27,623 nt of DNA from an uncultured Candidatus Saccharibacteria bacterium (GCA_964630815.1 CAZVXQ010000001.1:1-27623); one strand, 5' to 3'. Shown: positions 2,734 through 27,623, numbered from the stretch's first letter. Made by a program: numbers and translations. The notes: generated by a model not told the origin, from the letters alone.

Positions 2734-2738
2734 ATTTA

Positions 2739-3096
2739 AGTCATACCATAAGCCGAATTCTGTTGCATATGTCAGACATATGCATGACAACCATTTGTCT
2801 GGTCCCAAAATTACTTTTGAGATCGAGCGGTTCTTTTTTGATAAACCTTGCGGTTTTCAAAAACACGACCTTGCACCGAAGTAAGGATTTTGCCGTTGCA
2901 ATCCTGTGTTACCACAGGCTTCATCCGTATTGCTACGGAGCTTTTGCCTTTCGACTCAAGCGTCACTGTTCGCACCTCTGGTTATTAACCTGACGGGTGT
3001 TACCCGCTACTTGTTTCCACCAACTTACGTCAGTGGCGGTGTTCGGACTTTCCTCCCTAAATTGCAAGCAATGTAGAGCGGTTGTCTGGTACAACT
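2739..3096 (-). ncRNA. rnpB: RNase P RNA
   Basis: The minus strand has the universal GAGGAAAGTCCG and ACAGAATTCGGCTTAT (P4) motifs. P1 AGTTGTACCA/TGGTATGACT defines the ends; P2 GACAACC/GGTTGTC, P18 with GTAA loop and a P19 hairpin are visible. Confidence 0.95.
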
Positions 3097-3102
3097 ATTG
3101 CA

Positions 3103-3153: not shown

Positions 3154-3981
3154 TTATTTTTCCAATCTTTTTATCAATTGTTTATACGCTTTTGCGTTAT
3201 TTACTGCAATCCAACATTCTGACGGTATACTGACAGCAGAAAGCTGTTTCTTTTTTGCCAATATCGGAAACAATACGCTTTCGAAATCTGCTTTTTTATT
3301 TAGATCAAAATGTTTATCGAAATATGAATGCACCTCTGGACCAAGAATAGTTATACCAATATGGGTAGGAATCGGTATTTGCGGATACATCTCTATCTGA
3401 TGAACTACGTTGTTTATTATCTTCATACCAGTATACGTATATGGGGTTTCTTCGACCACCACAACAGTCGCCAATCTATTTTGATCTAAGTGACCTTGTA
3501 CTATATATCTAGGAAAATTACCTTTGAAATCAAGAATGACATCATCAGGGTTGTGGACAATAAAATAGTGGTTTTTTGGTATCAAATTTTGATTGATTGC
3601 ATGTTTTATTGCACCACCCTTGCCTACTGGCTTTTCTGGGTCATAAGAATATTTTATGCTAACACCAAATTTTGAACCATCACCGAGAACATTTTTTATT
3701 GAATTGGCATTGTGAAATACCGATGCAACAAAATTTTTGAAGCCAGCATCACGATACATCTTTATTGCCATTTCTATCATCGTCTCGCCATTTGGCAAAA
3801 GATAAGCATTTTTATTAACCGCAACACCGTTTGTCACTTCGGAAAATCTCGAACTTTCGCCTCCTGCCATGAGTACAATCGTTGTATTTTTGACAAAATT
3901 CTCCCAAACCTCGTTTTTGATTTTTTTAGGCTTCCTTACTCGATTGATTTTTCTGCGCAGTTCTTTTAATGCCTTTTTCAT
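3154..3981 (-). CDS. NDP-sugar pyrophosphorylase / nucleotidyltransferase (NTP_transferase family)
   Basis: IVLMAGGESSRF glycine loop, LPNGETMIE, FGVSIKYSYDPEKPVGKGGAI, HNPDD. Substrate cannot be assigned. Confidence 0.8.
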   Translation of the reverse strand: MKKALKELRRKINRVRKPKKIKNEVWENFVKNTTIVLMAGGESSRFSEVTNGVAVNKNAYLLPNGETMIEMAIKMYRDAGFKNFVASVFHNANSIKNVLGDGSKFGVSIKYSYDPEKPVGKGGAIKHAINQNLIPKNHYFIVHNPDDVILDFKGNFPRYIVQGHLDQNRLATVVVVEETPYTYTGMKIINNVVHQIEMYPQIPIPTHIGITILGPEVHSYFDKHFDLNKKADFESVLFPILAKKKQLSAVSIPSECWIAVNNAKAYKQLIKRLEK

Positions 3982-6512: not shown

Positions 6513-7016
6513 TTAAATTACAAACGTAAGAGGAGTGCCAGAAGCAATGCCATTTTCTTCGGCATAACCAGCATTGAGTTCTAGAACATACTTGACTGGT
6601 TGTGGTGGAAAATAGATATTTGGATATGATTCTGGGGCAACATCTTTTTCAATTCCAATTACTGTTTTATTTTTATCGATCCAAATAATATCTATCGGAA
6701 AAGACATGTTTCTCATCCAAAAACCTCGCGAGGCAACTACCGGAAAGACGAAGAGCATACCAGAACCAGGGTCCATGGATTGGCGACCACTAAGTCCTGT
6801 TTCTAACTGTTCCGAAGATGTTGCAAGTTCAGCCTTAATATATCCGTTTGGAGCATGAATAAGAGTCTCTTTTGCTGAAATAGTATTTTTGCTTAGATAT
6901 TCTTCTAAAGTAGGCAATGAATTGTTGCTAGATAAATACATTACAAGAGCAACCAGACCAAATATTCCTATAATTGTTGTAAAAATGTAGCTACTATAAT
7001 TTGTTTTATTTTTCAT
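6513..7016 (-). CDS. DUF192 domain protein with N-terminal membrane anchor
   Basis: AELATSSEQLETGLSGR, GMLFVF, FWMRNMSFPIDIIWID, YVLELNAG are the family hallmarks. Confidence 0.85.
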   Translation of the reverse strand: MKNKTNYSSYIFTTIIGIFGLVALVMYLSSNNSLPTLEEYLSKNTISAKETLIHAPNGYIKAELATSSEQLETGLSGRQSMDPGSGMLFVFPVVASRGFWMRNMSFPIDIIWIDKNKTVIGIEKDVAPESYPNIYFPPQPVKYVLELNAGYAEENGIASGTPLTFVI

Positions 7017-7175
7017 TTAATTTCTTATACTCATAGTCTTCAATAAACTGATAAGACCGGTAATAACTAAAGCAGCCGATACAACAATAATCATACTCGG
7101 TTCTTCTGCGATAGACAAACCGTAATTTTTTAGATAAATGAATGCTCCGACTATTATAATAAAATAAGGAAACAT
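7017..7175 (-). CDS. 52-aa two-TM small membrane protein (absent from the ORF track)
   Basis: MFPYFIIIVGAFIYLKNYGLSIAEEPSMIIVVSAALVITGLISLLKTMSIRN; its TAA directly abuts the DUF192 ATG (TAAATG), implying translational coupling. Confidence 0.55.
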   Translation of the reverse strand: MFPYFIIIVGAFIYLKNYGLSIAEEPSMIIVVSAALVITGLISLLKTMSIRN

Positions 7176-7235
7176 GATACTTGTATTGGAGATACTTTAT
7201 GCTAGCATTCTAGCATACAAGCTAATATTTAATAT

Positions 7236-7640
7236 ATGGAACCGATCAATATTCTGCCAATCTTAGTATCATCATTAGTTGCTTTTGGTATTGGTTCATT
7301 CTGGTATTCACCTTTTCTTTTTGGGAAAGAATGGATGGAAGGAAGAAAAATACAACAAGAGTCAATAGAGAAATTTGCTGTAATACGTTCATACGGTATT
7401 CAATTTTTGTTTACCGTAGTATCTTTCTCAGTTTTAGCATTTCTAATAAGCATGGCGGAGGTACGATCAAGTACCGATGGCTCTTTCGTAGGTCTTCTTG
7501 CCTGGATCGGTTTTATCCTTCCCATTTCCCTTTCTAGTGTCTTGTGGAAAAGAGATACTTTTACATTATTCCTAATCGACGTGGTCTACAATCTAGTAAT
7601 AATAACAATCGGTGGCGCAATAATTGGCGCTTGGAGGTAG
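7236..7640 (+). CDS. DUF1761 family membrane protein
   Basis: AFGIGSFWYSPFLFGKEWM start, four TM segments, ending GGAIIGAW. Confidence 0.8.
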   Translation: MEPINILPILVSSLVAFGIGSFWYSPFLFGKEWMEGRKIQQESIEKFAVIRSYGIQFLFTVVSFSVLAFLISMAEVRSSTDGSFVGLLAWIGFILPISLSSVLWKRDTFTLFLIDVVYNLVIITIGGAIIGAWR

Positions 7641-17374: not shown

Positions 17375-17410
17375 GGGGAGTCGAAGCTTACAGCTTCGGT
17401 ACAGGTTTCG
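17375..17410 (+). repeat. 36-bp perfect direct repeat, copy 1
   Basis: GGGGAGTCGAAGCTTACAGCTTCGGTACAGGTTTCG, identical to 21415-21450. Confidence 0.92.
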
Positions 17411-17463
17411 TTAGGTATCAGAATCAGAGTAATACTTCTATATATTTTTTAAAGCAAATGTTT

Positions 17464-17495
17464 AACCCCGCACATGCTTTCGCAAATGCGGGGTT
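17464..17495. terminator. Hairpin after the 17514-17891 ORF
   Basis: AACCCCGCA / TGCGGGGTT 9-bp inverted repeat. Confidence 0.55.
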
Positions 17496-17513
17496 TCGGA
17501 AATCTTCAAGAGG

Positions 17514-17891
17514 TCATTCCGTTTGACCACTGCCATCTTCACACTTTCGCTGTCTACGTCGATCTCCACCGATCCAGCGACCTTCCTTATCGCGCAGGCC
17601 GGTGTCCATTTCGGACTGCCACCGTGCAATATGCACCTCCAGTGGCGTATTCAGCCATCTCTCAAGCGCACGCCGATCCTCAATCGACAGCTCTCCCGAG
17701 AGTACGTTATCGGTGGAAGGAGCGTAAACTGTCCACCCATCATCTTCCTCAATGATGTACGAACCCTCAAATCGCGCCGCACATTTGCATGCGGCCTCAT
17801 AGGGGGTTCCATCCTCGGGTCGAAGACAGGAACGACAATTGCGGCCAAAGAAGGCGGCATCCTCATATCCTTCTGGCGGGATATGGCTCAC
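17514..17891 (-). CDS. GC-rich hypothetical protein
   Basis: AAAGGA SD 5 nt before a GTG start; followed by a hairpin; visibly GC-richer than its flanks. Competing overlapping frames exist. Confidence 0.5.
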   Translation of the reverse strand: MSHIPPEGYEDAAFFGRNCRSCLRPEDGTPYEAACKCAARFEGSYIIEEDDGWTVYAPSTDNVLSGELSIEDRRALERWLNTPLEVHIARWQSEMDTGLRDKEGRWIGGDRRRQRKCEDGSGQTE

Positions 17892-18288
17892 ACTGATCCT
17901 TTCTGCTTTTGAGGCAGAAAGAATTGTTGAGCTCTACTTGATTTTATCAATTCAGTCTGCCCCTGTTTGCACAAGAGCTCTATTATGACACTATCACGTA
18001 ATCTAACATTTGTCTAGGTAAACGGGGAGTCGTATACATCAAATGTACTTGTCTAACAATCTATGTATACTTTCATAAATCGTTACGAAGGCAAACTAAT
18101 TTCATAAAGTCTATAATCTGCAATGCTTGCAGTATTTGGTTTTCAGAACTGATGGGTGTTAAGTATTATACAAAATTCGTGCCGCAATCACTAAGTGCTG
18201 TGCTTACTTGATAAAGTGCACAATGTACGCATGTTCACAGCCTTGTATTGACTTTTGGCCTGGATCGTCTATACTAAGGTAGTCATTA

Positions 18289-18315
18289 GAAAACGCCAAC
18301 CTGTGTGGCGTTTTC
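18289..18315. terminator. Terminator hairpin at the end of the NYN remnant
   Basis: GAAAACGCCA-acctgtg-TGGCGTTTTC, 10-bp stem. Confidence 0.6.
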
Positions 18316-18323
18316 CTTTTTAT

Positions 18324-18722
18324 CTAGAGGTCCTTCTTAATCTTGAGCTTCCACAAATCTATATCTGCGTAGAAAACTGAGTCCTTCTTTTCAGCTATAA
18401 GTTCACGAAGCTTGGTTGAGAATCGAGACACAGAATAGCGTGGAGCAACCTTAATCTTCTTGGCACTTGAAACAACATATACTTTGACCCCCTTATTTAC
18501 AGCATTTTTTATCACGTATTCAAAATCACCATCGTTAGTAAACATCAGGAATTCTACACCTTCTTTAGCTAAATTAGTTGCGTCCACCGAAAGTTCTGCA
18601 TCACAATTAGATTTCCATCGAACAGTCCCTTCCGTTTTATAATCAATTTCATTTGCACACTTCGGACAAGCAATTTTAATGACTTTACCTGGATTTTTGT
18701 AGATGTTATAGGGCTTATTTTC
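18324..18722 (-). pseudogene. 5'-truncated NYN (LabA/DUF88, PIN-like) domain gene
   Basis: The frame is open for 132 aa from an in-frame TGA (18723-18725): ENKPYNIY…CPKC…KSNCDAELSVDA…FTNDGDFEYVIKNAVNKGVKVYVVS. The N-terminal D.x.N motif and a start codon are missing. Confidence 0.65.
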
Positions 18723-18891
18723 TCAATACAGTTTTAACAGTATAGTATCCAAGTTGCTTTCCGGTAGTGTCATAAAATCTCCCATTCTTCTCACTAACAG
18801 CTTCAACGGGGTTAATAAAAAATCTATATCCAATAACCAGAAGAATGATCAGGACAATGATCGATAGAATAATACAAAGATATTTATTCAT
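18715..18891 (-). CDS. Short membrane-anchored ORF, possibly a truncated gene
   Basis: MNKYLCIILSIIVLIILLVIGYRFF…; its ATG lies 1 nt after the upstream stop; it ends where the NYN remnant begins. Confidence 0.5.
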   Translation of the reverse strand: MNKYLCIILSIIVLIILLVIGYRFFINPVEAVSEKNGRFYDTTGKQLGYYTVKTVLRK

Positions 18892-18892
18892 A

Positions 18893-19744
18893 TTATGGTT
18901 CATTTTGATTTATCCAGTTTATAAAATTATCTTGTTCAATTTTGAAATTTGATTCAAAATTCACTTTTTTGGATAGACTCAAAGATAGAAGCCATTCTCT
19001 AAACATTCCAAATGCCTCATAAGCTCCCTTTTTGCAGCGTAGACCGTAATCTGCTAAAATTTCATTCATTTTTACTTTATCCGACTTTAGATTAAGTGCA
19101 CCGAGATCTTGTCCAATTTGTGTTAAACCAGACTCGCGGACGACGTTATAAGCAAGAGTTTGGCACTGTTCTAAAACGTATTGAGACTCCATTGCAACTG
19201 CATTTTGATGGATTTTCCAATAGCCAGCGATCAGGATCAGCAATCCAATTACTATCAAGAGTAGATATTTACGGCCGTGAAGTACTTTTCCTAGTATTAG
19301 TAATATTAAAGATAGTAATGATGAATATAAAGCAAGCATTATTATAAATCCCAATGGTTCCAGGTCGCTGAAATTAACTTTTATTCCACCAGCAATTTTA
19401 ATAATTGAAGCAAGAACATGGACAGAAAAAAAACTTATTCCGACCGTTATAATTCCAACAAGAATAACTGAGCAAATAATCTGTAAAACTGTTGGATTAC
19501 CTGACTTTCTAAGAAAGTTAAGAGCCAAAACTACTGCCACAGGAATCAACATAAATAGACTTAGAACAGAAGTCGCTAATAGCCCATTATTTAACAGCTG
19601 ATCAATACTAGAATAAGTGCCCACGAATGACGGGGACCATGGGGAAAATATGTAAGGGATTATCAAAAATAATATCGTAAAACCAAGGAAAAATAGTGAT
19701 AGTAATTTTGAAATCCTTTGATTCAGTGTAGTCTCATTTTCCAT
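18893..19744 (-). CDS. Polytopic membrane hypothetical protein
   Basis: About five TM segments plus a soluble C-terminal domain. Start placed at MENET, 2 nt after the upstream stop. Confidence 0.7.
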   Translation of the reverse strand: MENETTLNQRISKLLSLFFLGFTILFLIIPYIFSPWSPSFVGTYSSIDQLLNNGLLATSVLSLFMLIPVAVVLALNFLRKSGNPTVLQIICSVILVGIITVGISFFSVHVLASIIKIAGGIKVNFSDLEPLGFIIMLALYSSLLSLILLILGKVLHGRKYLLLIVIGLLILIAGYWKIHQNAVAMESQYVLEQCQTLAYNVVRESGLTQIGQDLGALNLKSDKVKMNEILADYGLRCKKGAYEAFGMFREWLLSLSLSKKVNFESNFKIEQDNFINWINQNEP

Positions 19745-19746
19745 GA

Positions 19747-20718
19747 TTATTTTTGACAAATATTTTGAGAATTAAATCTAGAGGCTTTGTTAAGATAACC
19801 TGTACTATCAACACAGTAGAATTCACCAGTTGTTAACTTAACAGTTACAGCATAATTTTTTCCATCCATACAGCTAATATTATTACCTACTTTTTCCTTT
19901 AGCTCATTCAAGGTTTTAGTAAATACAGTTCCTGTTGACTTACAAATTTCTGAATAATCGGTATGAGAATCCAAATACAATTCTGCTCCTGGTCGTAGGC
20001 CGGCAATCGTAGATTTAACCTCATTATCTTGAGCAGTGTTGCCTGCCTGCTCTACAAATTGTGATACTTTGGTAGTATCAAATGATATTGATTCTATTGC
20101 TGATGAACCTTTCATTAACCAATCTTGGGAGCCGTTTCTTGAAACTATCGTCGCGAAAAAGAGAACGGTCGTACCATTGTATTTTAATGGGACAAAGTAC
20201 TGAACACTTTTTGCTGTTGTTTCGTTATAACTGACTTTATAACCATTTTGTCCACCAATTGACACATCCCCCTTCGTATAAGAGTGGTTTGGCAAGGAAC
20301 CTAAGTAAGTTAATTGTTTTTCGTTTTCAGCCAAAGCATTCGCTCTTCGATCAACACCTACATATATTATGCTGTCGTAGGTTGGTTCTGATTTAAGTGG
20401 ATTTACTAATACAGACTGCTGAGTAGTTTGGGTCTTTGGAGTCTCTCTTAGACTATTTCTATCAAAAAAATTCACCGTATCCAGTGTCTTTTCAATTCCC
20501 CAATCTTCTGGATACATAAAGCTGAACAAGCCAGAAAGGTCTGTATATTTATTCGTGGAATTTGAAACTGACTTGACAGAAAGATTTGTATTTCCATTAA
20601 CATTCTGTGATTGAGACGTTTTTGCTTCCCTAGAGTAATAATATACTCCGCCTCCAATTGCTAAGACTGCAATAATTATTAAAATTGGCACGACGAACCC
20701 TTTTTGTGAATTTTTCAT
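19747..20718 (-). CDS. Exported protein with pilin-like leader, PsbP-like middle and pilin-like C-terminal domain
   Basis: QKG|FVVPILIIIAVLAIGGG leader; YTDLSGLFSFMYPEDW (PsbP-like); C-terminal DNEVKSTIAGLRPGAELY…C…C…YAVTVKL…YCVDSTG. Confidence 0.72.
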   Translation of the reverse strand: MKNSQKGFVVPILIIIAVLAIGGGVYYYSREAKTSQSQNVNGNTNLSVKSVSNSTNKYTDLSGLFSFMYPEDWGIEKTLDTVNFFDRNSLRETPKTQTTQQSVLVNPLKSEPTYDSIIYVGVDRRANALAENEKQLTYLGSLPNHSYTKGDVSIGGQNGYKVSYNETTAKSVQYFVPLKYNGTTVLFFATIVSRNGSQDWLMKGSSAIESISFDTTKVSQFVEQAGNTAQDNEVKSTIAGLRPGAELYLDSHTDYSEICKSTGTVFTKTLNELKEKVGNNISCMDGKNYAVTVKLTTGEFYCVDSTGYLNKASRFNSQNICQK

Positions 20719-21404
20719 AGTAATTTTTTTAAATATAAATTATTATGTTGGTATTACTGTACCACATATAGGGAAGTTTCTCCAGAGTGTCCTGATGGTA
20801 AGGAGATCGAGTTTATCTTTACCGCTTTCTTGCCACCTGTTCGCCCCTGTGCGCGATTTTCTGCTCCAAGTAAGCCATTTCCCCAACTTTGAACGTATTC
20901 TCTACCGTGTCGGCAAAATTCGAGAATTACGTAGTTTACGGTTTTACCCCACCCCTCACATCACTATACTTATCGCAATCTGGTGATATTATGATGTTCA
21001 CGACATCCACAACGTTCACACGATAAGGCTAGGATATGGGCCATATGTGAACGTCGCCATGAAAATGTGAATGTATATGGAGTAATTACCTCAATGGAAA
21101 ATTGACCTTTGGAAGAAGCTGATTCTGAACAAAGATGGAGAATTCGACGAAAAAACTCGATATACATAATTTCCGTTTCTTTGAGCCTGCCGAATAACGC
21201 GTGCTCATCCGCAGCAATGTTCAGAAAAATATCTACAGGATAAACATTGCTGCTAAGAATGAGTCGCTCATGAATATAAGCGGCAACAATACTCCTTTGG
21301 AGGATTCATATTTCTATTTCGATCCGGCTCATACTATTAGTAATTCTAACAAAAGAAAACTGCAGACACATGGTTTCCGTGTCTACTAAATGGGGTCCAT
21401 ATCA

Positions 21405-21425
21405 GTGACCCTACGGGGAGTCGAA
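21405..21425 (-). other. tRNA 3'-end fragment (T-loop, T-stem, acceptor 3' strand; Glu-like), candidate att site
   Basis: The minus strand reads TTCGACT-CCCCG-TAGGGTC-AC; no tRNA 5' half is present upstream. Confidence 0.55.
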
Positions 21426-21556
21426 GCTTACAGCTTCGGTACAGGTTTCGCGCGGTGCTCGCTTCGCTGCGCGCCGCATGCTCAACCTTTTCGACTCCCC
21501 GCCGCTCGCGCGCAGGCGCGAGCTTAGGCTCACACTCGCTACGCTCGTGTGACCCT
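21414..21556. other. GC-rich multi-hairpin palindrome, candidate single-strand origin
   Basis: IRs CGGGGAGTCGAA/TTCGACTCCCCG (21414-25/21490-501), GCTCGCGC/GCGCGAGC (21504-23) and TCACAC/GTGTGA (21530-52), with CTCGCTWCGCT loops. Confidence 0.5.
21415..21450 (+). repeat. 36-bp perfect direct repeat, copy 2
   Basis: Identical to 17375-17410. Confidence 0.92.
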
Positions 21557-21601
21557 CGTTAGTGGAGATTGGAACCAGATTATTACACAAATAAAGTATT
21601 T

Positions 21602-21639
21602 TAACCAAAAAGCCCCCTATTAAGGAGGCTTTTTGGTTA
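21602..21639 (-). terminator. Intrinsic terminator of the DUF3892 operon
   Basis: Minus strand GCCTCCT-TAAT-AGGGGGC-TTTTT right after the stop codon. Confidence 0.75.
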
Positions 21640-21906
21640 GCACTCTGGAAGATTTAGGAGATTATCCTTTCCTGTCCAGTCTGGAATTGTACGAATGTAC
21701 GGGTCTCGACCGGCGCCAGGATAAACAACTGTAACCCATGCTACTGAACCAGCCACACTAACGTAAAACGAATCGGTACGGTTCTCAATTAGACGAATCA
21801 CATGCTCACGCGTATGAATGACACCGTCATATCTTACATGAGTAATATGTTCGTGCGTGCTATTACGATTCGGCTTGCGAATCGCTGTAATTTGATGTTG
21901 CGACAT
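21637..21906 (-). CDS. DUF3892 domain protein
   Basis: QITAIRK…HEHITHV…TREHVIRLIE…FYV…PYIRT.PD.T..DNLLNLPEC pattern. Confidence 0.8.
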   Translation of the reverse strand: MSQHQITAIRKPNRNSTHEHITHVRYDGVIHTREHVIRLIENRTDSFYVSVAGSVAWVTVVYPGAGRDPYIRTIPDWTGKDNLLNLPEC

Positions 21907-21946
21907 CTTTGTAATTTTAAAGAGTGAATAATATGGTACTTACTGC

Positions 21947-22162
21947 CTAATGTTTCTGTCGGTTATATGGAGATTGGTTCGCAGGCTTGAGAGAAACATG
22001 CTTCACTGAAGCTTGATTACGAACGCTATCTTCAGAACGACCGAGCTTCAATCCGATAACTCGTGTAGGTGTGTTGTCTGCGGCAAGGGTACGAAGTGTT
22101 TTCGTCTCTTGTGCTGACCACGGCTTCCCAGAGTTTCTGATGTAGTATGGTTTTCCTGCCAT
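21947..22162 (-). CDS. Small conserved basic protein with a putative HTH/Myb-like fold
   Basis: GKPWSAQETKTLRTLAADNTPTRVIGLKLGRSEDSVRNQAS…SLKPANQSPYNR. Confidence 0.72.
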   Translation of the reverse strand: MAGKPYYIRNSGKPWSAQETKTLRTLAADNTPTRVIGLKLGRSEDSVRNQASVKHVSLKPANQSPYNRQKH

Positions 22163-22291
22163 TTGGTTTTAGCGTTATTGAACACTTGATAATCATCTCT
22201 TGGCCAAGAGATGGCGAGAGCGAAAGTGTCGTCTTCGCTGACGCTGTTCGGAGAAGCGTTCTCTGACGAGAGTGGCCAATCCTCATGCGTA

Positions 22292-22319
22292 ATTATAAAT
22301 CTATATTTTGAAAATGCAA
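22292..22319 (-). promoter_or_regulatory. Leftward promoter for the HTH-DUF3892 operon
   Basis: TTGCAT-16 nt-TATAAT on the minus strand. Confidence 0.55.
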
Positions 22320-22350
22320 GCTTTTTGTTCAATACATTGTCAACAGTTTA

Positions 22351-22378
22351 TTGACACGACAACTCAATAGGCTATAAT
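22351..22378 (+). promoter_or_regulatory. Rightward consensus promoter for the repressor (leaderless)
   Basis: TTGACA-16 nt-TATAAT; the ATG begins 7 nt after the -10. Confidence 0.75.
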
Positions 22379-22384
22379 TGACGT

Positions 22385-23050
22385 ATGAACCCAATCCAAG
22401 AAAAACTCATAGAGCTATCACAAAAACACAATATTAAGAAAATGGGCTTAAGACATATAGGAAGACTTATCGGCATTGAACATCCCCAAACCATAAAGTA
22501 CCACTTACAAAAACTCGGATTACTTGATGGTAGTAAGAAGCAGAGACCTGATGTAAAGAAAATTATTATTCAAAAAAAACCTAAGCAAGAACTTATTTCT
22601 GTACCTATTTTAGGACTTGCTAACTGTGGAGATGCGACCATGTTTGCCGATTCGAAGGTCGAAGGTAACCTAATGCTTTCTTCCAAATTATTGTCTTGCA
22701 GAGATTCACGTAATTTATTCGCAGTCCGAGCAGTTGGTTCTTCTATGAACCAAGCAAATGTAAATGGAAAAAATATTGACGATGGCGATTATGTTGTTGT
22801 TGATGGTAAAGATAATGATGTCAAAACAGGCGATTATGTCCTGTCCGTTATTGCTGGGCTAGCAAACATTAAAAAGATTGTCAAAGATGATTCCCAAAAA
22901 CAAATTGCCCTGATATCTGAATCGAAGCAATTCTTTCCGCCAATTTACCTTCACTTGGATGATTTAAACGATTATATAGTTAATGGTAAGGTTGTAGATG
23001 TTATAAAAGAATCAAATGATACGAATGATATTCGATACGAACCCCTTTAA
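22385..23050 (+). CDS. LexA/cI-like S24 self-cleaving repressor
   Basis: N-terminal HTH (GLRHIGRLIGIEHPQTIKYHLQKL); VPILGLANCG cleavage loop; RAVGSSM (Ser) and ANIKK (Lys) dyad. Confidence 0.88.
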   Translation: MNPIQEKLIELSQKHNIKKMGLRHIGRLIGIEHPQTIKYHLQKLGLLDGSKKQRPDVKKIIIQKKPKQELISVPILGLANCGDATMFADSKVEGNLMLSSKLLSCRDSRNLFAVRAVGSSMNQANVNGKNIDDGDYVVVDGKDNDVKTGDYVLSVIAGLANIKKIVKDDSQKQIALISESKQFFPPIYLHLDDLNDYIVNGKVVDVIKESNDTNDIRYEPL

Positions 23051-23076
23051 TAGGTTTGTTATGATAAAATTAACAT

Positions 23077-23976
23077 ATGAACATAGATATTATAGAAAAT
23101 GAGAATCTACCTATAAATAGATTAAAAAGTCTTGCTAAAGAATCTACATCTGTTAGCGCCAATTTAATTCTTGGTGATTGTCTCGATGTGCTTAAACAAA
23201 TTGAATCGAATTCTGTTGATTTAGTTGTGACTTCACCGCCCTATAGTGACCAACGAGGTTCCACTTATGGTGGCATAAAACCAGAAAAATATGTTGAGTG
23301 GTTTACTCCTATAACTGCAGAATTATTGAGGGTTCTAAAACCTACTGGCACTTTTGTACTGAACATTAAGGAAAAGGTTGCTGATGGTGAAAGGCATACT
23401 TATGTATTAGAGCTTATTTTGGAGATGCGCAAACAGGGATGGCTTTGGACTGAAGAGTTTATTTGGCACAAAAAAAATTGCTATCCGGGTAAATGGCCTA
23501 ATCGATTTAGAGACGCATGGGAAAGACTTTTGCAATTCAACAAGGACAGAAAATTTAATATGTACCAAGACAATGTAATGGTACCTACTGGTGATTGGGC
23601 TAAAACAAGACTCAAGAATTTAAGTGAAACTGACAAAAGGCGTGATAATTCCAAAGTTGGAAGCGGTTTTGGTAAGAACATATCTAAATGGGTTGGTCGT
23701 GATATGGCTTATCCAAGTAATGTTCTGCATATGGCTACAGAAAGTAGTAATAAAAATCATAGTGCTGTATTCCCTAAGGAGTTACCTACGTGGTTTATTA
23801 AATTATTTACAAAACCGGGAGATGTTGTGTTAGACCCTTTCCTTGGTTCCGGTACGACTTGCATTGTTGCTAAGCAAATGGGGCGTAACAGCATCGGCAT
23901 TGAGATAAAAAAAGAGTATTATGATGTTGCGAGTACAAATGTCGCTAGCGTACAATCATCACTTCAGCTTTTCTAA
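23077..23976 (+). CDS. Beta-class N4-C/N6-A DNA methyltransferase
   Basis: GDC start, motif IV VTSPPY preceding motif I DPFLGSGTT, IGIEI. Confidence 0.93.
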   Translation: MNIDIIENENLPINRLKSLAKESTSVSANLILGDCLDVLKQIESNSVDLVVTSPPYSDQRGSTYGGIKPEKYVEWFTPITAELLRVLKPTGTFVLNIKEKVADGERHTYVLELILEMRKQGWLWTEEFIWHKKNCYPGKWPNRFRDAWERLLQFNKDRKFNMYQDNVMVPTGDWAKTRLKNLSETDKRRDNSKVGSGFGKNISKWVGRDMAYPSNVLHMATESSNKNHSAVFPKELPTWFIKLFTKPGDVVLDPFLGSGTTCIVAKQMGRNSIGIEIKKEYYDVASTNVASVQSSLQLF

Positions 23977-23980
23977 ATTT

Positions 23981-24751
23981 ATGACTAAATTAAATCAAGA
24001 AGAATTATTTGCTTACATATCAGAGACTGTTATGAAGCCGTTTTATGAGATAAGATTGGCTAAACTAACTGCACTAGATTTACATTCAATTCTCAAAAGG
24101 AAAAACCCGTATCTTTTTAAGGCGAAAAATATTGAGACAAGTGGAGACCTTGTAAAATATATTTTAGACGCTTTTCTTTCCTCACAGGAAGAAACGATTT
24201 TTGGTAATTTACTCGAATCGCTTGCTATTTTCATTTGCGAAAAGGTCTATAAGGGGCACAAAGCAGAACAAGGTGTATTAAAGAGTGTTGACTTGGAATT
24301 TATCAGGGACGGTAAATATTATATTGTTGGTATAAAGTCTGGTCCTAATTGGGGCAATAAGGACCAAGTGGACAGAATGAAATTCAATTTTAGATTTGCT
24401 AAGAAATTGTTGCGAAAGAAAGGAATTGAGAATGAAATAGTAGCAGTAAATGGCTGTATTTATGGGAAAGACAATAACCCATTTAAGGAGGATAAAAACC
24501 CCGAGGAAAGCTACTATAAACTGTGTGGCGAAGAATTTTGGGAGCTAGTCTCTGGTGATAGAGAGTTATATAAGAAAATTATTTTGCCGCTTGAAAAGGA
24601 AGCTAAAAAAAGAGGTGAGCATTTCTCTGAAATTTATGCCTCAAAGAGTAACGAGATGATAAAGGAATTTTCTGATAATTTCCTAACAAAAAAGGGTCTT
24701 ATCGATTGGGAAAAAATTATTGATTTTGTTTCAAAGAAGAATGGTGATTAG
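23981..24751 (+). CDS. Type II restriction endonuclease, EcoO109I/PmeII-like PD-(D/E)xK
   Basis: KRKNPYLFKAK, SSQEETIFGNLLESLAI, VDLEF…IVGIKSGPNWGN; starts 4 nt after the MTase stop. Confidence 0.8.
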   Translation: MTKLNQEELFAYISETVMKPFYEIRLAKLTALDLHSILKRKNPYLFKAKNIETSGDLVKYILDAFLSSQEETIFGNLLESLAIFICEKVYKGHKAEQGVLKSVDLEFIRDGKYYIVGIKSGPNWGNKDQVDRMKFNFRFAKKLLRKKGIENEIVAVNGCIYGKDNNPFKEDKNPEESYYKLCGEEFWELVSGDRELYKKIILPLEKEAKKRGEHFSEIYASKSNEMIKEFSDNFLTKKGLIDWEKIIDFVSKKNGD

Positions 24752-24908
24752 GCCTTGCGAAAGCAAGAAATAACCCTGCAAGATTGTTCAGACACTGTTC
24801 AGCCATTTCTTCTGAAAGAATTACTCCGTTTTCTTCTCTAAAAATCGTTATAGTCTCGTTAATTAGTTTTTGACTGTATCGGTGTGGTGGTATCTCTAGC
24901 TGATTCAT
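24717..24908 (-). CDS. Small acidic helical protein
   Basis: YSQKLINETITIFREENGVILSEEMAEQCLNNLAGLFLAFAR; overlaps both neighbours, so the start is uncertain. Confidence 0.5.
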   Translation of the reverse strand: MNQLEIPPHRYSQKLINETITIFREENGVILSEEMAEQCLNNLAGLFLAFARPNHHSSLKQNQ

Positions 24909-25086
24909 TTATCGGTTTGTTAGATTGTAAATGTTTCTCAATTTTTTCGAGCAGGTCAGTAATTCTATTTATCTTCCAGTACCAAGTAACAAGCTCTCTG
25001 ATAACCATGAAGAAAATGAATCCCCAGAATAGGTAAAGCAATAAATCTGATAGATGTACTGAAGGAAAAAATGATGCGATATTCAT
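24859..25086 (-). CDS. 75-aa single-pass membrane protein
   Basis: LLLYLFWGFIFFMVIRELVTWYWKINRITDLLEKIEK; first ORF after the structured RNA. Confidence 0.6.
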   Translation of the reverse strand: MNIASFFPSVHLSDLLLYLFWGFIFFMVIRELVTWYWKINRITDLLEKIEKHLQSNKPINESARDTTTPIQSKTN

Positions 25087-25106
25087 AATATTTGATTATT
25101 AAATAC

Positions 25107-25240
25107 AAAAAGCCCACCACATAGGTAGGAGCCGAAGCCCCTCATGCCAGTTTCCCGACATGGCCAACGAGGACACCCTATATGATGGGTTCTTTGTCCT
25201 CGTTGGACTTCGTTCGCCATGCCCTTTCGGGTTTAGGCAC
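25107..25240 (-). ncRNA. Structured leader / cloverleaf RNA with competing terminator (C4/CI-like)
   Basis: GAAA and cUUCGg hairpins, a 13-bp closing stem with G-U pairs only on the minus strand, a 12-nt internal antisense pair, a terminator with U5, and upstream TTGCTG-17-TATAAT (25260-25288). Confidence 0.6.
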
Positions 25241-25581
25241 CATATTCAATTGTGGTCTAATTATATGATGTTATTGAGGTATCAGCAACATTGACTTCAC
25301 ATACAACAGAGCTACACTTATAGCAGGATTCAGATTAGAAAGGACTTTGACTTTTTAAGCACGCCACTCTTAAAAAATTATATTCAAAAATTTCTATCTA
25401 TATCTACTCGTGGCAAAAAATATTTACCCTATAATTAAGTTATAAAAAAAATAATATCCAAAGGGAGTCATTGTGATATTTTGCTCATAAAAGTTAGTAG
25501 ACCTTATCGTTAGGTCTGCTTTTTGCCGTGTCCAAACGGCGAGCTTTCTTTCTAACCTGTATCCCAACAGGTGCTTTTTGA

Positions 25582-25666
25582 TATGACCATGTGTGCGGGG
25601 CGTTTCGCACCGACCTCTTGAGAGGCGGGGCGGAACGCCCCGCCGTCAGGCTTGATTATGGTCATA
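25582..25666 (+). other. Candidate double-strand origin (dso) for rolling-circle replication
   Basis: A 9-bp outer IR TATGACCAT/ATGGTCATA encloses GC-rich hairpins; GGCGGGGCG-GAA-CGCCCCGCC is followed by CTTGATTA (25651-58), just before rep. Confidence 0.6.
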
Positions 25667-25670
25667 CATA

Positions 25671-26495
25671 ATGAGAATGGATAATAAATATGTAAAACTA
25701 GTGTTCTCTGGCTCTCGTATCGAAACATACGAGCATGATAGGCCGTTAATGCCTCGTTTTCAGCCTGAAGATGGTATTAAACGTGTTCGAGCAAAGATTG
25801 AAGTAACTGATGAAGAAAGCAGACAGAGAAAGGAGGAGGCTAGGAATAAAGCTGTCTACAAGGCTCGTACTGACCTTACAAGGCTGATTTACGCTAATGC
25901 ATGGCATTGGTTCGACTCTGATGGCAAGCCTTACCTGCCCGTTTTCATTACCCTTACTTTCCGTGATGATATTCGTGATTTGAAGCAGGCTAACCATGCC
26001 TTTTCTAATTTTATTAAGCGTCTTAATTTTCGTATCGGTGAATCAAAAGCCAGTATCTTGAAGTATGTCGTTGTGCCTGAATTCCAAGACCTTCATCGTG
26101 GCGGTGTCGTTCACTATCATGCACTCTTTTTCAATCTTCCGTTTATTTGGAAGAGTGAGCTAGAGGAAGTATGGGACGAGGGCTATGCCAAAATCCGAAA
26201 GATAGACAATCTTGATAAGGCTGTTGGATATGTCTGCAAATATATTGCAAAGAAATTTGATGACCATCGCCTTGACGGCCAAAAACGATTTTCTCCTAGT
26301 AGAGATTTACTCAGGCCTTTTGTTTCTAGGGATAGAGGCATGCTTGGCTATGTCAAAGATATTCCGAAAAATTGCACTATAAAAGTTCAGGAGTACGACA
26401 GCCACTACCTCGGCCATGTTAAATATACGCAGATTCAATTGAAAAAGGGCGAATCAATTGGAGATTACATTTCTGTACCTGAAAATTTCCAATGA
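25671..26495 (+). CDS. HUH-superfamily rolling-circle replication initiator (Rep)
   Basis: Motif 1 FITLTF, motif 2 VHYHALFF (preceded by EFQD..RGG), motif 3 YVCKYIAK with two tyrosines. Confidence 0.88.
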   Translation: MRMDNKYVKLVFSGSRIETYEHDRPLMPRFQPEDGIKRVRAKIEVTDEESRQRKEEARNKAVYKARTDLTRLIYANAWHWFDSDGKPYLPVFITLTFRDDIRDLKQANHAFSNFIKRLNFRIGESKASILKYVVVPEFQDLHRGGVVHYHALFFNLPFIWKSELEEVWDEGYAKIRKIDNLDKAVGYVCKYIAKKFDDHRLDGQKRFSPSRDLLRPFVSRDRGMLGYVKDIPKNCTIKVQEYDSHYLGHVKYTQIQLKKGESIGDYISVPENFQ

Positions 26496-26677
26496 TAAGC
26501 CTTGAAGAATTAAAAAAGATTGACCCTGCTTTGCAAAAATATTCTGACAAGGAATTGCTAAAAATCCGTGCCCTGCTCTACTCTGCTGGCCAGTTGGCGA
26601 TTGAAAGCTATGTTGCCAGTAAAAGCGGTTCCAAATATCCCAGTGGGGATAAGAAAAAGATTGACGATATGGTGTAG
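26492..26677 (+). CDS. 61-aa helical protein between Rep and recombinase (candidate RDF)
   Basis: ATGA overlap with the rep stop; ends 9 nt before the recombinase ATG. Confidence 0.65.
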   Translation: MISLEELKKIDPALQKYSDKELLKIRALLYSAGQLAIESYVASKSGSKYPSGDKKKIDDMV

Positions 26678-26686
26678 GATACTTAC

Positions 26687-27623
26687 ATGAACGAAACTGC
26701 CCTCAAAACAGGAATAATCTATTGTCGAGTATCTTCTCTAGAACAGGTAGACGGCACGAGCCTTGAATCTCAAGAAAAGATTTGTCGTGAGTATGCACAG
26801 AAAGAAAATATCGCTGTGCTGAAAATTTTTATCGAGAAAGGCGAATCTGCAAAAAGCGCAGAGCGTACCGAGTTTATGAAAGCTATCGCCTTCTGCTCCT
26901 CAAAGAAAAATGCCGTCAATTGCTTCATTGTCTACAAGCTAGACCGCTTCGCCAGAAACCAAGTAGACCACATCACTGTCCGTGAGACATTGAAAAAATA
27001 TAACACTGAATTGAAGTCTGTTACCGAACCGATAAGCGACACACCTGTCGGTAAGATGATGGAATCCATGCTCTCCGCTTTTGCCGAGTTTGATAACAAT
27101 GTCCGCACTGAAAGAAGCGTTAATGGTATGAAAGAACGCTTGAAGCAAGGCATATGGGTTTGGCAGTCTCCTCTGGGCTATTACCGCACCGAGAAAGGGG
27201 CTAATCTCACCCCTGACCCTCATTTTGCCCCTTACATACGTACAGTCTTCGAGGAGTACGGCAAAGGCACATACACCTACGAATCATTGGCTAACTACAT
27301 GAATGGCAAAGGCTTCATCACCAGAAGCGGCAAACAAGCTATTCCTCAACTCATCGAGAAAATTATTAGAAATCCGCTTTATTGCGGAATAATCAAAGTC
27401 TGGGAAATGGAATATCAAGGAAAATTTGAGCCTATCATAAGCGAGGAACTGTTCGACCAGTGCAATGGCAAGAAGAAATCAAAGAACCTGATACGCAAGG
27501 CTAACAACCCAGACTTTCCGCTTCGCCGTCTCGTCTTGTGCGGAATATGCCATAAGCCTCTTACAGGTAGTCGTGCGACAGGAAGACATGGCAAGAAATT
27601 TCCATATTACCACCACCATAAGC
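26687..27623 (+). CDS. Large serine recombinase, 3' end outside the window (missing from the ORF track)
   Basis: MNETALKTGIIYCRVSSLEQVDGTSLESQ catalytic motif; VYKLDRFARN; AEFDNNVRTER; recombinase domain (PLGY…IRNPLYCG…EPIISEELF); zinc ribbon LCGICHKPLTG. Confidence 0.93.
   Translation, partial: MNETALKTGIIYCRVSSLEQVDGTSLESQEKICREYAQKENIAVLKIFIEKGESAKSAERTEFMKAIAFCSSKKNAVNCFIVYKLDRFARNQVDHITVRETLKKYNTELKSVTEPISDTPVGKMMESMLSAFAEFDNNVRTERSVNGMKERLKQGIWVWQSPLGYYRTEKGANLTPDPHFAPYIRTVFEEYGKGTYTYESLANYMNGKGFITRSGKQAIPQLIEKIIRNPLYCGIIKVWEMEYQGKFEPIISEELFDQCNGKKKSKNLIRKANNPDFPLRRLVLCGICHKPLTGSRATGRHGKKFPYYHHHK

Follow-up and report, generated by a model that had tools for sequence, protein, structure and literature searches.

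Positions 21549-27623 of the window (the whole 27,623-nucleotide stretch of DNA that was analyzed, which is contig C1 from end to end) and positions 10 to about 562 of a second contig, C51, very probably form a single integrated mobile element, about 6.6 kb long. The element pairs a rolling-circle Rep with a tRNA-aimed serine integrase and restriction-modification (R-M) cargo, and it is a member of a large family nearly restricted to Patescibacteria, the ultra-small CPR bacteria. Its core is a fixed operon composed of an origin-like site (GC hairpins and ACTTGATTAT), a two-tyrosine HUH Rep, a small ORF and a large serine recombinase (LSR). There are no genes within the element for a route of transfer between cells. 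An earlier note on this DNA had proposed such a Rep-LSR integrative replicon without virion or conjugation genes; all the genes it named were found by Pfam where it had placed them, and its central thesis stands after both the synteny of the homologues and the sequence beyond the window were examined. No paper describing a Rep-LSR element family of Patescibacteria was found in the literature.

The Rep-LSR core and its candidate origin

The core occupies the right-hand part of the window:

25582..25666, plus strand: candidate double-strand origin, in which GC-rich hairpins precede the nick-like word CTTGATTAT
25671..26495, plus strand: two-tyrosine HUH rolling-circle Rep (REP_ORF2-G2P, PF23343, E 9e-20; RCR phrogs)
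26492..26677, plus strand: 61-aa ORF that overlaps the rep stop and is conserved in 16 loci of the window's LSR clade
26687..27623, plus strand: LSR, first 312 of about 507 residues, with the remaining 195 on C51

The Rep has the three motifs of the two-tyrosine HUH class (motif 1 FxTLTF, motif 2 HUH and motif 3 YxxxY), and the residues concerned are invariant in 16 homologues: FxTLTF (T94/T96/F97), HYH (H148-Y149-H150), and Y187 with Y191. The word CTTGATTAT lies at 25651-25659, 11 nt ahead of the rep ATG, and is unchanged in four aligned loci. When 84 Rep sources (83 loci and the window) were searched, 42 had CTTGAT[AT] in the 200 nt 5' of rep, compared with 0.06 expected. This recurrence agrees with the double-strand origin proposed in the earlier note, which we retain as a candidate. 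The candidate nick site is ACTTGATTAT, kept just 5' of rep, which we take to resemble the CTTG/ATA site of phiX174.

The LSR combines a catalytic domain with a serine nucleophile (Resolvase, PF00239, E 2.4e-33, residues 10-156; the translation shows the YCRVSS motif), a Recombinase domain (PF07508, E 9e-15) and then a C-terminal region, as expected of a large serine recombinase. The part encoded in the window is 87% identical to the complete 506-aa protein of locus L001, and the full-length relatives at L001 and L003 show PF13408 (Zn_ribbon_recom) as a weak match. Contig C51 overlaps the end of C1 by 9 nt and completes the gene; the frame runs on unbroken into C51, where it is 76% identical to L001 residues 311-507. 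The presumed join of the two contigs is based on this overlap and homology.

The 61-aa ORF between rep and the LSR gene is plausibly a recombination directionality factor, a candidate role that comes from structure prediction. When the L001 LSR was modeled together with its own 61-aa neighbor, the ipSAE was 0.78 compared with 0.01 for the best control; of the reference sets, 51 of 78 solved complexes and 2 of 108 mismatched pairs attain this value. The modeled interface involves LSR residues 342-358, 423-459 and 478-480, C-terminal beyond the Pfam resolvase and recombinase domains.

The ends of the element at tRNA-Glu(CTC)

On the right, the element ends inside a tRNA-Glu(CTC) gene located at C51:553-627. 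The final codons of the LSR cross the junction into this tRNA gene, which is on the opposite strand; therefore, the attachment site is contained in the integrase gene, at its 3' end, and the tRNA end comes from the element. On the left, four features adjoin one another:

21335..21404, minus strand: host terminator-like unit, found after tRNA and other RNA genes in the genome; outside the element
21405..21425, minus strand: displaced tRNA-Glu 3' fragment, from T-loop to discriminator; left edge of the tRNA-end module
21426..21548, no strand: structured tRNA-end module, with two hairpins (the second variable), then an inverted copy of the T-arm fragment (21490-21501), then another pair of hairpins
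21549..21575, plus strand: the element's own putative left junction (attL), the tRNA acceptor end GTGACCCT and an element arm mimicking the T-arm 5 nt further out

Copies of the terminator-like unit that are 94% identical lie directly 3' of tRNA genes on contigs C34 and C17, and a partial copy is present on C5. The earlier note had recognized an att-like end at 21405. The tRNA fragment there is real, and 21405-21425 matches the 3' end of tRNA-Glu(CTC) from C51, L001 and L003; however, it is part of a separate module, and the element's own junction would be 21549-21575. The tRNA-end module stands alone, with the same architecture, behind five other tRNAs of the source genome, and it is also found at the left of relatives. 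Four of its copies have 30 base pairs in common, 14 of them with compensatory changes. The module most likely lies outside the Rep-LSR element. The palindrome at 21405-21548, which had been read as sso-like, is outside the element's own junction and is therefore unable to act as its single-strand origin, so this candidate was rejected; no single-strand origin was identified within the revised boundaries.

The left-junction pattern has a single match in the window, at 21549-21575, and the same design was recognized at 23 of the 46 loci, with all clades represented; the downstream arm RAATTGGAACCAGATT...CAAATAAAG is kept within the Glu clade. The probable left boundary at 21549-21575 is drawn from this comparative pattern. 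At this junction, in the window and in the 23 loci, the element-borne arm copies the tRNA T-arm 5 nt farther from the crossover that we infer, and the opposite arm has no clear offset. In large serine integrases, the motifs of the attP half-sites are set about 5 bp farther out from the crossover than those of attB, and the 5-nt T-arm offset may represent this distinction.

The large serine integrases of phages and ICEs, such as phiC31, Bxb1, A118 and SPbeta SprA, consist of resolvase, recombinase, zinc ribbon and coiled coil. The LSR described here resembles them in its domain order, its predicted small C-terminal partner and a putative half-site motif on the element that is displaced by 5 bp relative to the host site. 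It differs in that the att site lies within the integrase coding end and a tRNA gene, and in being partnered with a plasmid-like rolling-circle replicon and not with a tailed phage or an ICE.

Distribution of the family and routes of mobility

The gene order rep, small ORF, LSR and tRNA is strongly conserved. The LSR gene lies less than 1.5 kb downstream of rep on the same strand in 67 of the 83 Rep loci, so the conserved synteny with variable cargo anticipated in the earlier note was observed. Sequence beyond the LSR is available for 62 loci, and at 44 of them the stop codon of the LSR overlaps with a tRNA gene; 17 different tRNA targets occur across the family. Nearly all the Rep-locus records are Patescibacteria MAGs, and the Rep tree places the window Rep within a starred clade of 26 rows, every one of which is LSR-linked. 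Relatives with defined boundaries measure 5.7-10 kb and contain only Rep, LSR, small ORFs and cargo that differs from one to another; at L001, the host genes for a mur ligase, a PBP and mraZ come directly after the tRNA. The prophage or ICE gene set that might have lain outside the window was sought on C51 and in the bounded relatives; there are no virion or conjugation genes on C51 beyond the window, and none in the complete relatives.

As a mechanism, we propose that the LSR would insert a circular double-stranded form into tRNA-Glu(CTC). Expression of the rep, small ORF and LSR operon would supply the small protein, which would bind the LSR and switch it to excision, and in the window copy this expression may be triggered when the LexA-like repressor cleaves itself. 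Rep would nick at CTTG/ATTAT and then copy the circle by the rolling-circle route.

Another reading is that the element is an integrative mobilizable element (IME), in which Rep is chiefly a relaxase nicking an oriT at the CTTGATTAT site, the single strand leaves via a host chromosomal T4SS, by analogy with the RCR-initiator-like relaxases of streptococcal IMEs, and autonomous replication is secondary or absent. We consider this unlikely, although several observations speak for it. Streptococcal IMEs share the compact order of RCR-type relaxase, excisionase and integrase (PMC5357655), the LSR and the candidate directionality factor would provide the integrase and excision factor of such an element, and the source genome encodes a 722-aa ATPase with DUF87 and TraG-D_C domains on contig C21. 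However, a coupling protein (TcpA or VirD4) is absent from every bounded element, and neither the window element nor the bounded relatives contain a canonical relaxase. The Rep family is nearest to the Reps of Zot-bearing inovirus contigs, where the protein is a replicase, and Rep was found in 3 of the 151 sampled genomes of the phylum, far below the published carriage of T4SS. Conjugation-type T4SS have been described as near-universal in Patescibacteria, and the absence of a relaxase led the authors to conclude that they are not used for DNA transfer. It is doubtful that Rep is the "very different relaxase" missing for these systems; if it were, the Rep, small ORF and LSR elements would be IMEs of CPR bacteria, sending single strands through the host T4SS and re-integrating at tRNA genes.

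The streptococcal IMEs (Coluzzi et al. 2017, PMC5357655) are likewise small and site-specific, with variable cargo and with an HUH/RCR protein, a small excision factor and an integrase at one end. They differ in having mostly tyrosine integrases and usually a TcpA coupling protein ahead, whereas the element here has an LSR gene spanning the att site, no coupling protein, a two-tyrosine Rep of the inovirus/phiX type and Patescibacteria hosts.

The integrative replicon that we favor might also be read as a satellite of a filamentous phage, which has kept only the inovirus replication module. A helper inovirus would then supply the coat and Zot proteins that package its ssDNA, as CTX-type phages do in Vibrio for RS1 or TLC. 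Rep relatives of 29-40% identity are present in Zot-bearing IMG/VR inovirus contigs (in the order small proteins, large protein, Zot, Rep and tyrosine integrase), inoviruses have been predicted for CPR hosts, some with serine recombinases (PMC6813254), and the sizes of 5.7-10 kb suit filamentous packaging. Nevertheless, this origin appears distinctly improbable. Zot/pI ATPase was not found in the window proteins, the bounded relatives, the source genome or five other carrier genomes, and the same tool detects Zot beside Rep in the IMG/VR contigs. The Zot-linked Reps cluster with Bacillota records, apart from 71 LSR-linked Patescibacteria Reps (quick tree, SH-aLRT 86), and neither a packaging signal nor a helper is known. 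Among all the genes of the element, none make up a candidate set of coat genes and a large adsorption protein; there is a single 75-aa membrane protein.

That these are decayed prophages or fixed genomic islands, immobile remnants kept for the R-M system, is very hard to sustain. In its favor, neither an excised circle nor an empty site nor elevated depth was observed (in two public runs the region appears only as Logan contigs at about 3x depth, too thin to show circles), and the tRNA loci of the family hold arrays of partial copies and remnants. However, every core gene is an intact frame whose catalytic motifs are invariant, and neither the tRNA fragment nor the junction of the window shows decay. 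The intact module also occurs, with differing cargo, at 17 tRNA targets in many lineages, a distribution that cannot be explained unless the family has moved recently.

Known relatives and cargo

The earlier note regarded the combination of parts as distinct. The parts do occur together, but the combination is less unusual than claimed, in view of the phiRSM inoviruses (PMC3816273) and the streptococcal IMEs (PMC5357655). The phiRSM-type and other integrating inoviruses (PMC3816273; Roux et al. 2019, PMC6813254) have a related class of rolling-circle Rep and a serine recombinase that acts on a tRNA gene; unlike the element, they are complete viruses with coat genes, a Zot/pI ATPase and small resolvase-type recombinases. 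Actinomycete ICEs of the pSAM2 type (PMC2440964) are also tRNA-integrated, excise and replicate by the rolling-circle route with their own Rep, and they encode Int and Xis alongside. Their FtsK-like transfer protein, spread genes, mostly tyrosine integrases and actinobacterial hosts have no counterpart here, and an FtsK-like Tra domain is absent from the window element and the bounded relatives. Tycheposons of Prochlorococcus (bioRxiv 10.1101/2020.12.28.424599) are similar as minimal tRNA-targeting shuttles of streamlined genomes without transfer genes of their own, carrying a terminal integrase, a small module for replication and cargo for adaptation or defence, but they rely mainly on a tyrosine recombinase specific to their lineage and on replication of the primase/helicase type, and have no HUH Rep.

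The cargo of the window element comprises an EcoO109I-type R-M pair, a LexA-like repressor module, a DUF3892 protein, and a LOOT RNA accompanied by a small membrane protein:

21637..21906, minus strand: DUF3892 protein, cargo or regulatory (PF13031, E 1.5e-15; phrog_8224)
21947..22162, minus strand: 71-aa putative DNA-binding regulator (phrog_323 "transcriptional regulator", E 1.5e-9; no Pfam match), divergent from the repressor gene
22385..23050, plus strand: LexA/CI-like repressor with an S24 self-cleaving peptidase domain (PF00717, E 8e-14, domain full-length; phrog_4 repressor)
23077..23976, plus strand: N6/N4 DNA methyltransferase of the R-M pair (PF01555, E 3.4e-49)
23921..24751, plus strand: type II restriction endonuclease of the EcoO109I family (PF14511, E 2.1e-76)
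24717..24908, minus strand: conserved 63-aa element-family protein, clustering with proteins of about 58 aa
24859..25086, minus strand: 75-aa predicted membrane protein, directly downstream of LOOT
25127..25239, minus strand: LOOT RNA (Rfam RF03000; 73.2 bits vs a gathering score of 46.4; model positions 1-121)

The methyltransferase and endonuclease genes overlap on one strand and belong to matching families, as expected of an EcoO109I-type system. The cargo of relatives is mostly defence genes and includes R-M systems, SIR2, GmrSD and AAA_15, in agreement with the defence cargo proposed previously. A LexA-like switch had also been proposed; the S24 repressor gene is present, with TTGACA-17-TATAAT directly upstream, but it is not a feature of the family, and the only other locus with a homologue has it beyond the bounds of the element. 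A search of the source genome, a MAG that is 85% complete, did not find RecA. Relatives of the 63-aa protein, about 58 aa in length, occur in 23 Rep loci, mostly just upstream of rep.

The RNA that had been described as immunity-like is the Rfam LOOT RNA, and that description was abandoned. LOOT is present in 15 of the 84 Rep sources and in 30 of the 151 genomes of the phylum, making it about ten times commoner there than Rep; it is therefore not element-specific. Its copies always lie ahead of a variable ORF, often of the membrane type.

Gene content and boundaries of the element

The mobile element carrying Rep and the large serine recombinase (LSR) occupies the right part of the window, which is the entire contig C1 of the MAG (724 kb, 119 contigs, 85% complete), and continues at the start of contig C51 of the same MAG. 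All the genes named in the earlier note were confirmed by Pfam: a DUF3892 protein, a LexA-like S24 peptidase repressor with a full S24 domain, an N6/N4 methylase gene overlapping an EcoO109I-type endonuclease gene (the R-M pair), a REP_ORF2-G2P Rep, and an LSR gene that ends at the contig edge after residue 312. PHROGs assignments (repressor, rolling-circle initiation, integrase) were concordant with Pfam. The motifs FxTLTF, HYH and YxxxY are invariant across an alignment of 16 Rep homologues, so Rep is a two-tyrosine HUH enzyme; sequence comparison of Rep with solved structures gave no meaningful match. ARAGORN detected no tRNA genes within the window, and the tRNA of the element sits on C51.

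Features of the element and its flanks (window coordinates unless a contig is named)
21405-21425, minus strand: tRNA-Glu 3' end, from the T-loop onward
21426-21548: structured stretch, termed the tRNA-end module
21549-21575: conserved junction
24717-24908, minus strand: ~58-aa protein
25127-25239, minus strand: LOOT RNA (Rfam RF03000)
25671-26495, plus strand: Rep
26492-26677, plus strand: 61-aa ORF
C51:553-627, strand opposite the LSR: tRNA-Glu(CTC)

The first 9 nt of C51 are the last 9 nt of C1, and the LSR reading frame runs on in C51, where it is 76% identical to residues 311-507 of the nearest relative with a complete LSR. The tRNA-Glu(CTC) gene overlaps the LSR stop codon. The element therefore ends at this tRNA, and there is no prophage or ICE gene set past the window, a continuation that the earlier note had named as fatal to its interpretation.

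The left end had been placed at 21405. The tRNA fragment there is followed by a terminator-like unit, which also follows other tRNA genes of the MAG. An end at 21425/21426, where the tRNA fragment is joined to GCTTACAGC..., was dropped because the ~145-nt module stands alone at five other tRNAs and because a conserved junction lies further in. This junction reads GTGACCCT|CGTTAGTGGAGATTGGAAC and consists of a tRNA acceptor end followed by a T-arm copy displaced 5 nt outward; the conserved arm after it is …AACCAGATT…CAAATAAAG. Of 46 loci, drawn from all clades, 23 show the same design upstream of rep, for example GGGA-CGNNN-TTGGAA at the locus versus GGGA-TTCGAA in the tRNA, and its form in the Glu clade is GTGACCC-N9-11-AATTGGAAC. 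At some loci the tRNA-like part is identical to the local tRNA and represents a true attL. At others it is a generic tRNA end common to several genomes, as would be expected where partial elements lie in tandem. In large serine integrases, a motif displacement of 5 bp sets the attP half-sites apart from attB. The likeness of the displaced T-arm copy to this arrangement places the element, judged from the comparison of loci, probably at 21557-27623 plus C51:10-562 (~6.6 kb), with 21405-21548 as a separate module. Under either model of the left boundary the att site is inside the 3' end of the LSR gene, and the last residues of the LSR therefore differ between the integrated and excised forms.

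In public reads the region was present in two runs only as Logan contigs at ~3x depth, a level uninformative on excision either way; they showed neither joints nor a circle, no excess of depth across the element, and no contig usable as an empty site.

Just upstream of the LexA-like gene, a TTGACA-17-TATAAT promoter faces a divergent 71-aa regulator and DUF3892. Together, the protein, promoter and divergent regulator form a plausible candidate induction switch for the window's copy. This switch is not conserved in the element family. RecA and ComEC gave no match in the MAG, which at 85% completeness does not argue for their absence. Outside the element, a bacterial RNase P RNA of class A (109 bits) lies at window 2734-3097, minus strand.

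Conserved core, cargo and predicted directionality factor

Rep has 18 close homologues in a collection of 5.8 billion proteins, and their contigs carry Rep (274 aa), a small ORF (61-66 aa), the LSR (506 aa) and tRNA-Glu(CTC). At the closest relative with a full-length LSR (L001), host cell-wall genes come directly after this tRNA. The upstream cargo differs among close relatives, as with the NgoPII endonuclease and C5 methylase at locus L003. A wider scan of one genome per species gave 148 relatives, from which 80 loci were kept; counts refer to 83 distinct Rep loci. An LSR gene lies within 1.5 kb downstream of rep on the same strand in 67 of the 83, so a lack of synteny, the other refuting condition of the earlier note, clearly does not hold. 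An opposite-strand tRNA overlaps the LSR stop by 9-108 nt in 44 of the 62 loci with sequence past the LSR, and 17 different tRNA targets are used by the family.

Clustering of the neighbouring ORFs gave a core of Rep, the LSR, a ~60-aa ORF that separates the two in 16 loci of this LSR clade, a ~58-aa protein and, in other clades, a ~286-aa protein. The ~58-aa protein, whose window member is on the minus strand, clusters in 23 Rep loci; the possibility that it is a paralogue of the 61-aa protein was rejected (hhalign probability 1%). The ~286-aa protein (range ~240-316 aa), absent from the window, lies just upstream of rep on the same strand in 37 loci. It matches no Pfam family and is not a Zot.

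Examples of the ~286-aa protein
L014:9088-9828
L015:8897-9805
L019:2743-3600
34 further loci

The family is not marked by the LexA-like gene, DUF3892 or R-M genes that the window carries. Bounded relatives of 5.7-10 kb carry SIR2, GmrSD with HNH, an EcoRI methylase and a Ymh-type protein, and further AAA_15/21 ATPases, a glycosyltransferase, methylases and a deaminase; capsid, Zot and secretion genes were not found in them.

At the candidate origin, GC-rich hairpins are followed by the word CTTGATTAT, which ends 11 nt short of the rep ATG and is invariant across four aligned loci; it resembles the phiX174 gpA site. In 42 of 84 loci, CTTGAT[AT] lies no more than 200 nt 5' of rep, compared with 0.06 expected, and the consensus of the word is GGACTTGATTATAG.CACAC.

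For L001, the complete LSR and the adjacent 61-aa protein are predicted to bind, with a complex score of 0.78 versus 0.01 for the best control; 51 of 78 solved complexes attained this level, as did 2 of 108 mismatched pairs. The predicted contacts fall on LSR residues 342-358, 423-459 and 478-480, C-terminal to the stretch that Pfam assigns to the resolvase and recombinase domains (residues 10-264 of the window's LSR). By analogy with other large serine integrases, this C-terminal region would hold the zinc ribbon and coiled coil on which directionality factors act. The model supports, but does not show, a role of the 61-aa protein as directionality factor of the LSR.

Two further serine-recombinase homologues with 23-27% identity to the element LSR are present in the MAG (C38:5975-7003 and C65:244-1224, minus strand), the latter adjoining tRNA-Ser(CGA) and tRNA-Glu(TTC); these loci may be more integrated elements.

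Relation to mobilizable elements and filamentous phages

The central interpretation, a minimal integrative rolling-circle replicon with defence cargo and without virion or transfer genes, is supported. Among its parts, every named gene is present, but the left boundary, the "sso" and the "immunity RNA" required correction. The assumption of a CPR host is reasonable, because the records of the relatives are almost all labelled Patescibacteria (e.g., Taylorbacteria, Paceibacterota, Falkowbacteria and Magasanikbacteria) and genomes of the window's phylum are 0.5-1.3 Mb in the collection used.

A less likely reading is that Rep serves as the relaxase of an integrative mobilizable element (IME). 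In favour of this, Rep, small factor and integrase stand in the same compact order as in streptococcal IMEs, whose RCR-type proteins are taken to be relaxases (PMC5357655); Patescibacteria have conjugation-type T4SS and are nearly without known relaxases; and a TraG-like ATPase is encoded on another contig of the MAG.

Rep relatives with 29-40% identity occur in inovirus-like contigs of IMG/VR, in the order small proteins, large protein, Zot, Rep and tyrosine integrase. In a quick Rep tree, the IMG/VR Reps and three Bacillota records were separated from 71 LSR-linked Patescibacteria Reps with an SH-aLRT of only 86, and the window's Rep fell inside a well-supported clade of 26, all LSR-linked. 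Searches of the window's MAG and of five other genomes that carry the element found no Zot. Filamentous phages and this family thus have a replicase in common, but the family is not such a phage itself; a helper-dependent satellite of such a phage, which the Zot-linked relatives would favour and the Zot-free carriers count against, is possible but unsupported. Among the small inovirus-like contigs with Zot next to a Rep of this family (L117, L119-L122), the order Zot, Rep, tyrosine integrase is seen in L119-L121, and L120 and L121 have a tRNA-Val gene.

As a minimal integrative replicon, the Rep-LSR family in Patescibacteria is undescribed in the literature searched, yet it is a variant of IMEs, pSAM2-type elements, integrating inoviruses and tycheposons. 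In Patescibacteria, whose genomes are tiny, few mobile elements have been recognised, and whether their conjugation-like secretion system transfers DNA is an open question (PMC12102498). The family offers a concrete vehicle for gene flow in this group: a fixed module of replication gene, candidate excision factor and integrase that uses 17 or more tRNA genes and carries R-M and defence cargo in elements of 5.7-10 kb. It also offers many natural serine integrases with readable attP/attB pairs and candidate directionality factors, and the element is small enough to be rebuilt and tested in genetically tractable Saccharibacteria systems.

tRNA-end modules and the LOOT RNA

The stretch 21405-21548, previously described as an sso-like palindrome, is a module outside the revised element, and no single-strand origin was identified within the revised boundaries. 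Its part 21426-21548 comprises a hairpin, a variable hairpin, an inverted copy of the T-arm fragment and two more hairpins. Similar modules, in each of which the 3' end of the local tRNA is duplicated, stand alone 124-165 nt behind five other tRNAs of the MAG (Leu-TAG, Ala-TGC, Arg-TCT twice, Ile-GAT and Glu-TTC); Rep and LSR are absent at all five.

tRNA-end modules elsewhere in the MAG
C9:~7215-7373
C33:~3384-3530
C34:~6860-7200 (two copies)
C57:~3233-3400
C65:~2084-2270

Counting the window's own, six tRNA genes have such a module, about 125-170 nt long, directly behind them. Each module ends in a tRNA 3' duplicate cut in the T-loop, holds an inverted copy of the same T-arm piece, and belongs to one of two sequence subtypes; 30 base pairs are common to four copies of one subtype, and 14 of these pairs show compensatory changes. 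The modules are possibly miniature non-autonomous elements, landing pads or small RNAs.

Window positions 17375-17410 and 21415-21450 form a perfect direct repeat of 36 bp, made up of 11 nt of the tRNA-Glu T-arm and the first 25 nt of the module. At 17375 the remainder of the module and the tRNA acceptor part are missing, and GC-richer sequence with unassignable ORFs follows at 17514-17912; Pfam was uninformative for the ORFs between the repeats (17375 to 21415). To the left of the related element at L003 (6031-6505), a ~90-nt repeat of the downstream tRNA flank, two tandem modules, the repeat again and the element junction follow one another, which suggests repeated insertion at one tRNA. A conserved ~70-nt unit with a hairpin and a T-run (window 21335-21404, C34:2486-2556, C17:6038-6100 and C5:2925-2952) directly adjoins the 3' end of several genes for tRNAs or other RNAs and is probably a shared terminator.

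The supposed immunity-like RNA is LOOT. It was found in 15 of 84 sources (the 83 Rep loci and the window), well above chance in 1.2 Mb. Of 151 genomes sampled from the phylum, 30 contain it, with 1-3 copies per genome. Rep was found in 3 of the 151 and, among the 30, only in the window's own. Orientable copies almost always have a same-strand ORF within about 100 nt downstream, and these ORFs are mutually non-homologous and often encode membrane proteins. An element-specific or immunity RNA was rejected on both counts; LOOT is widespread in these bacteria and travels with variable genes, and thus has the look of a small RNA, a leader or an RNA linked to cassettes. Besides those in the window and on C38, LOOT loci were noted at L087-L116; the C38 copy (1335-1469, minus strand), the second in the MAG, lies ~4.5 kb from the LSR homologue on that contig.
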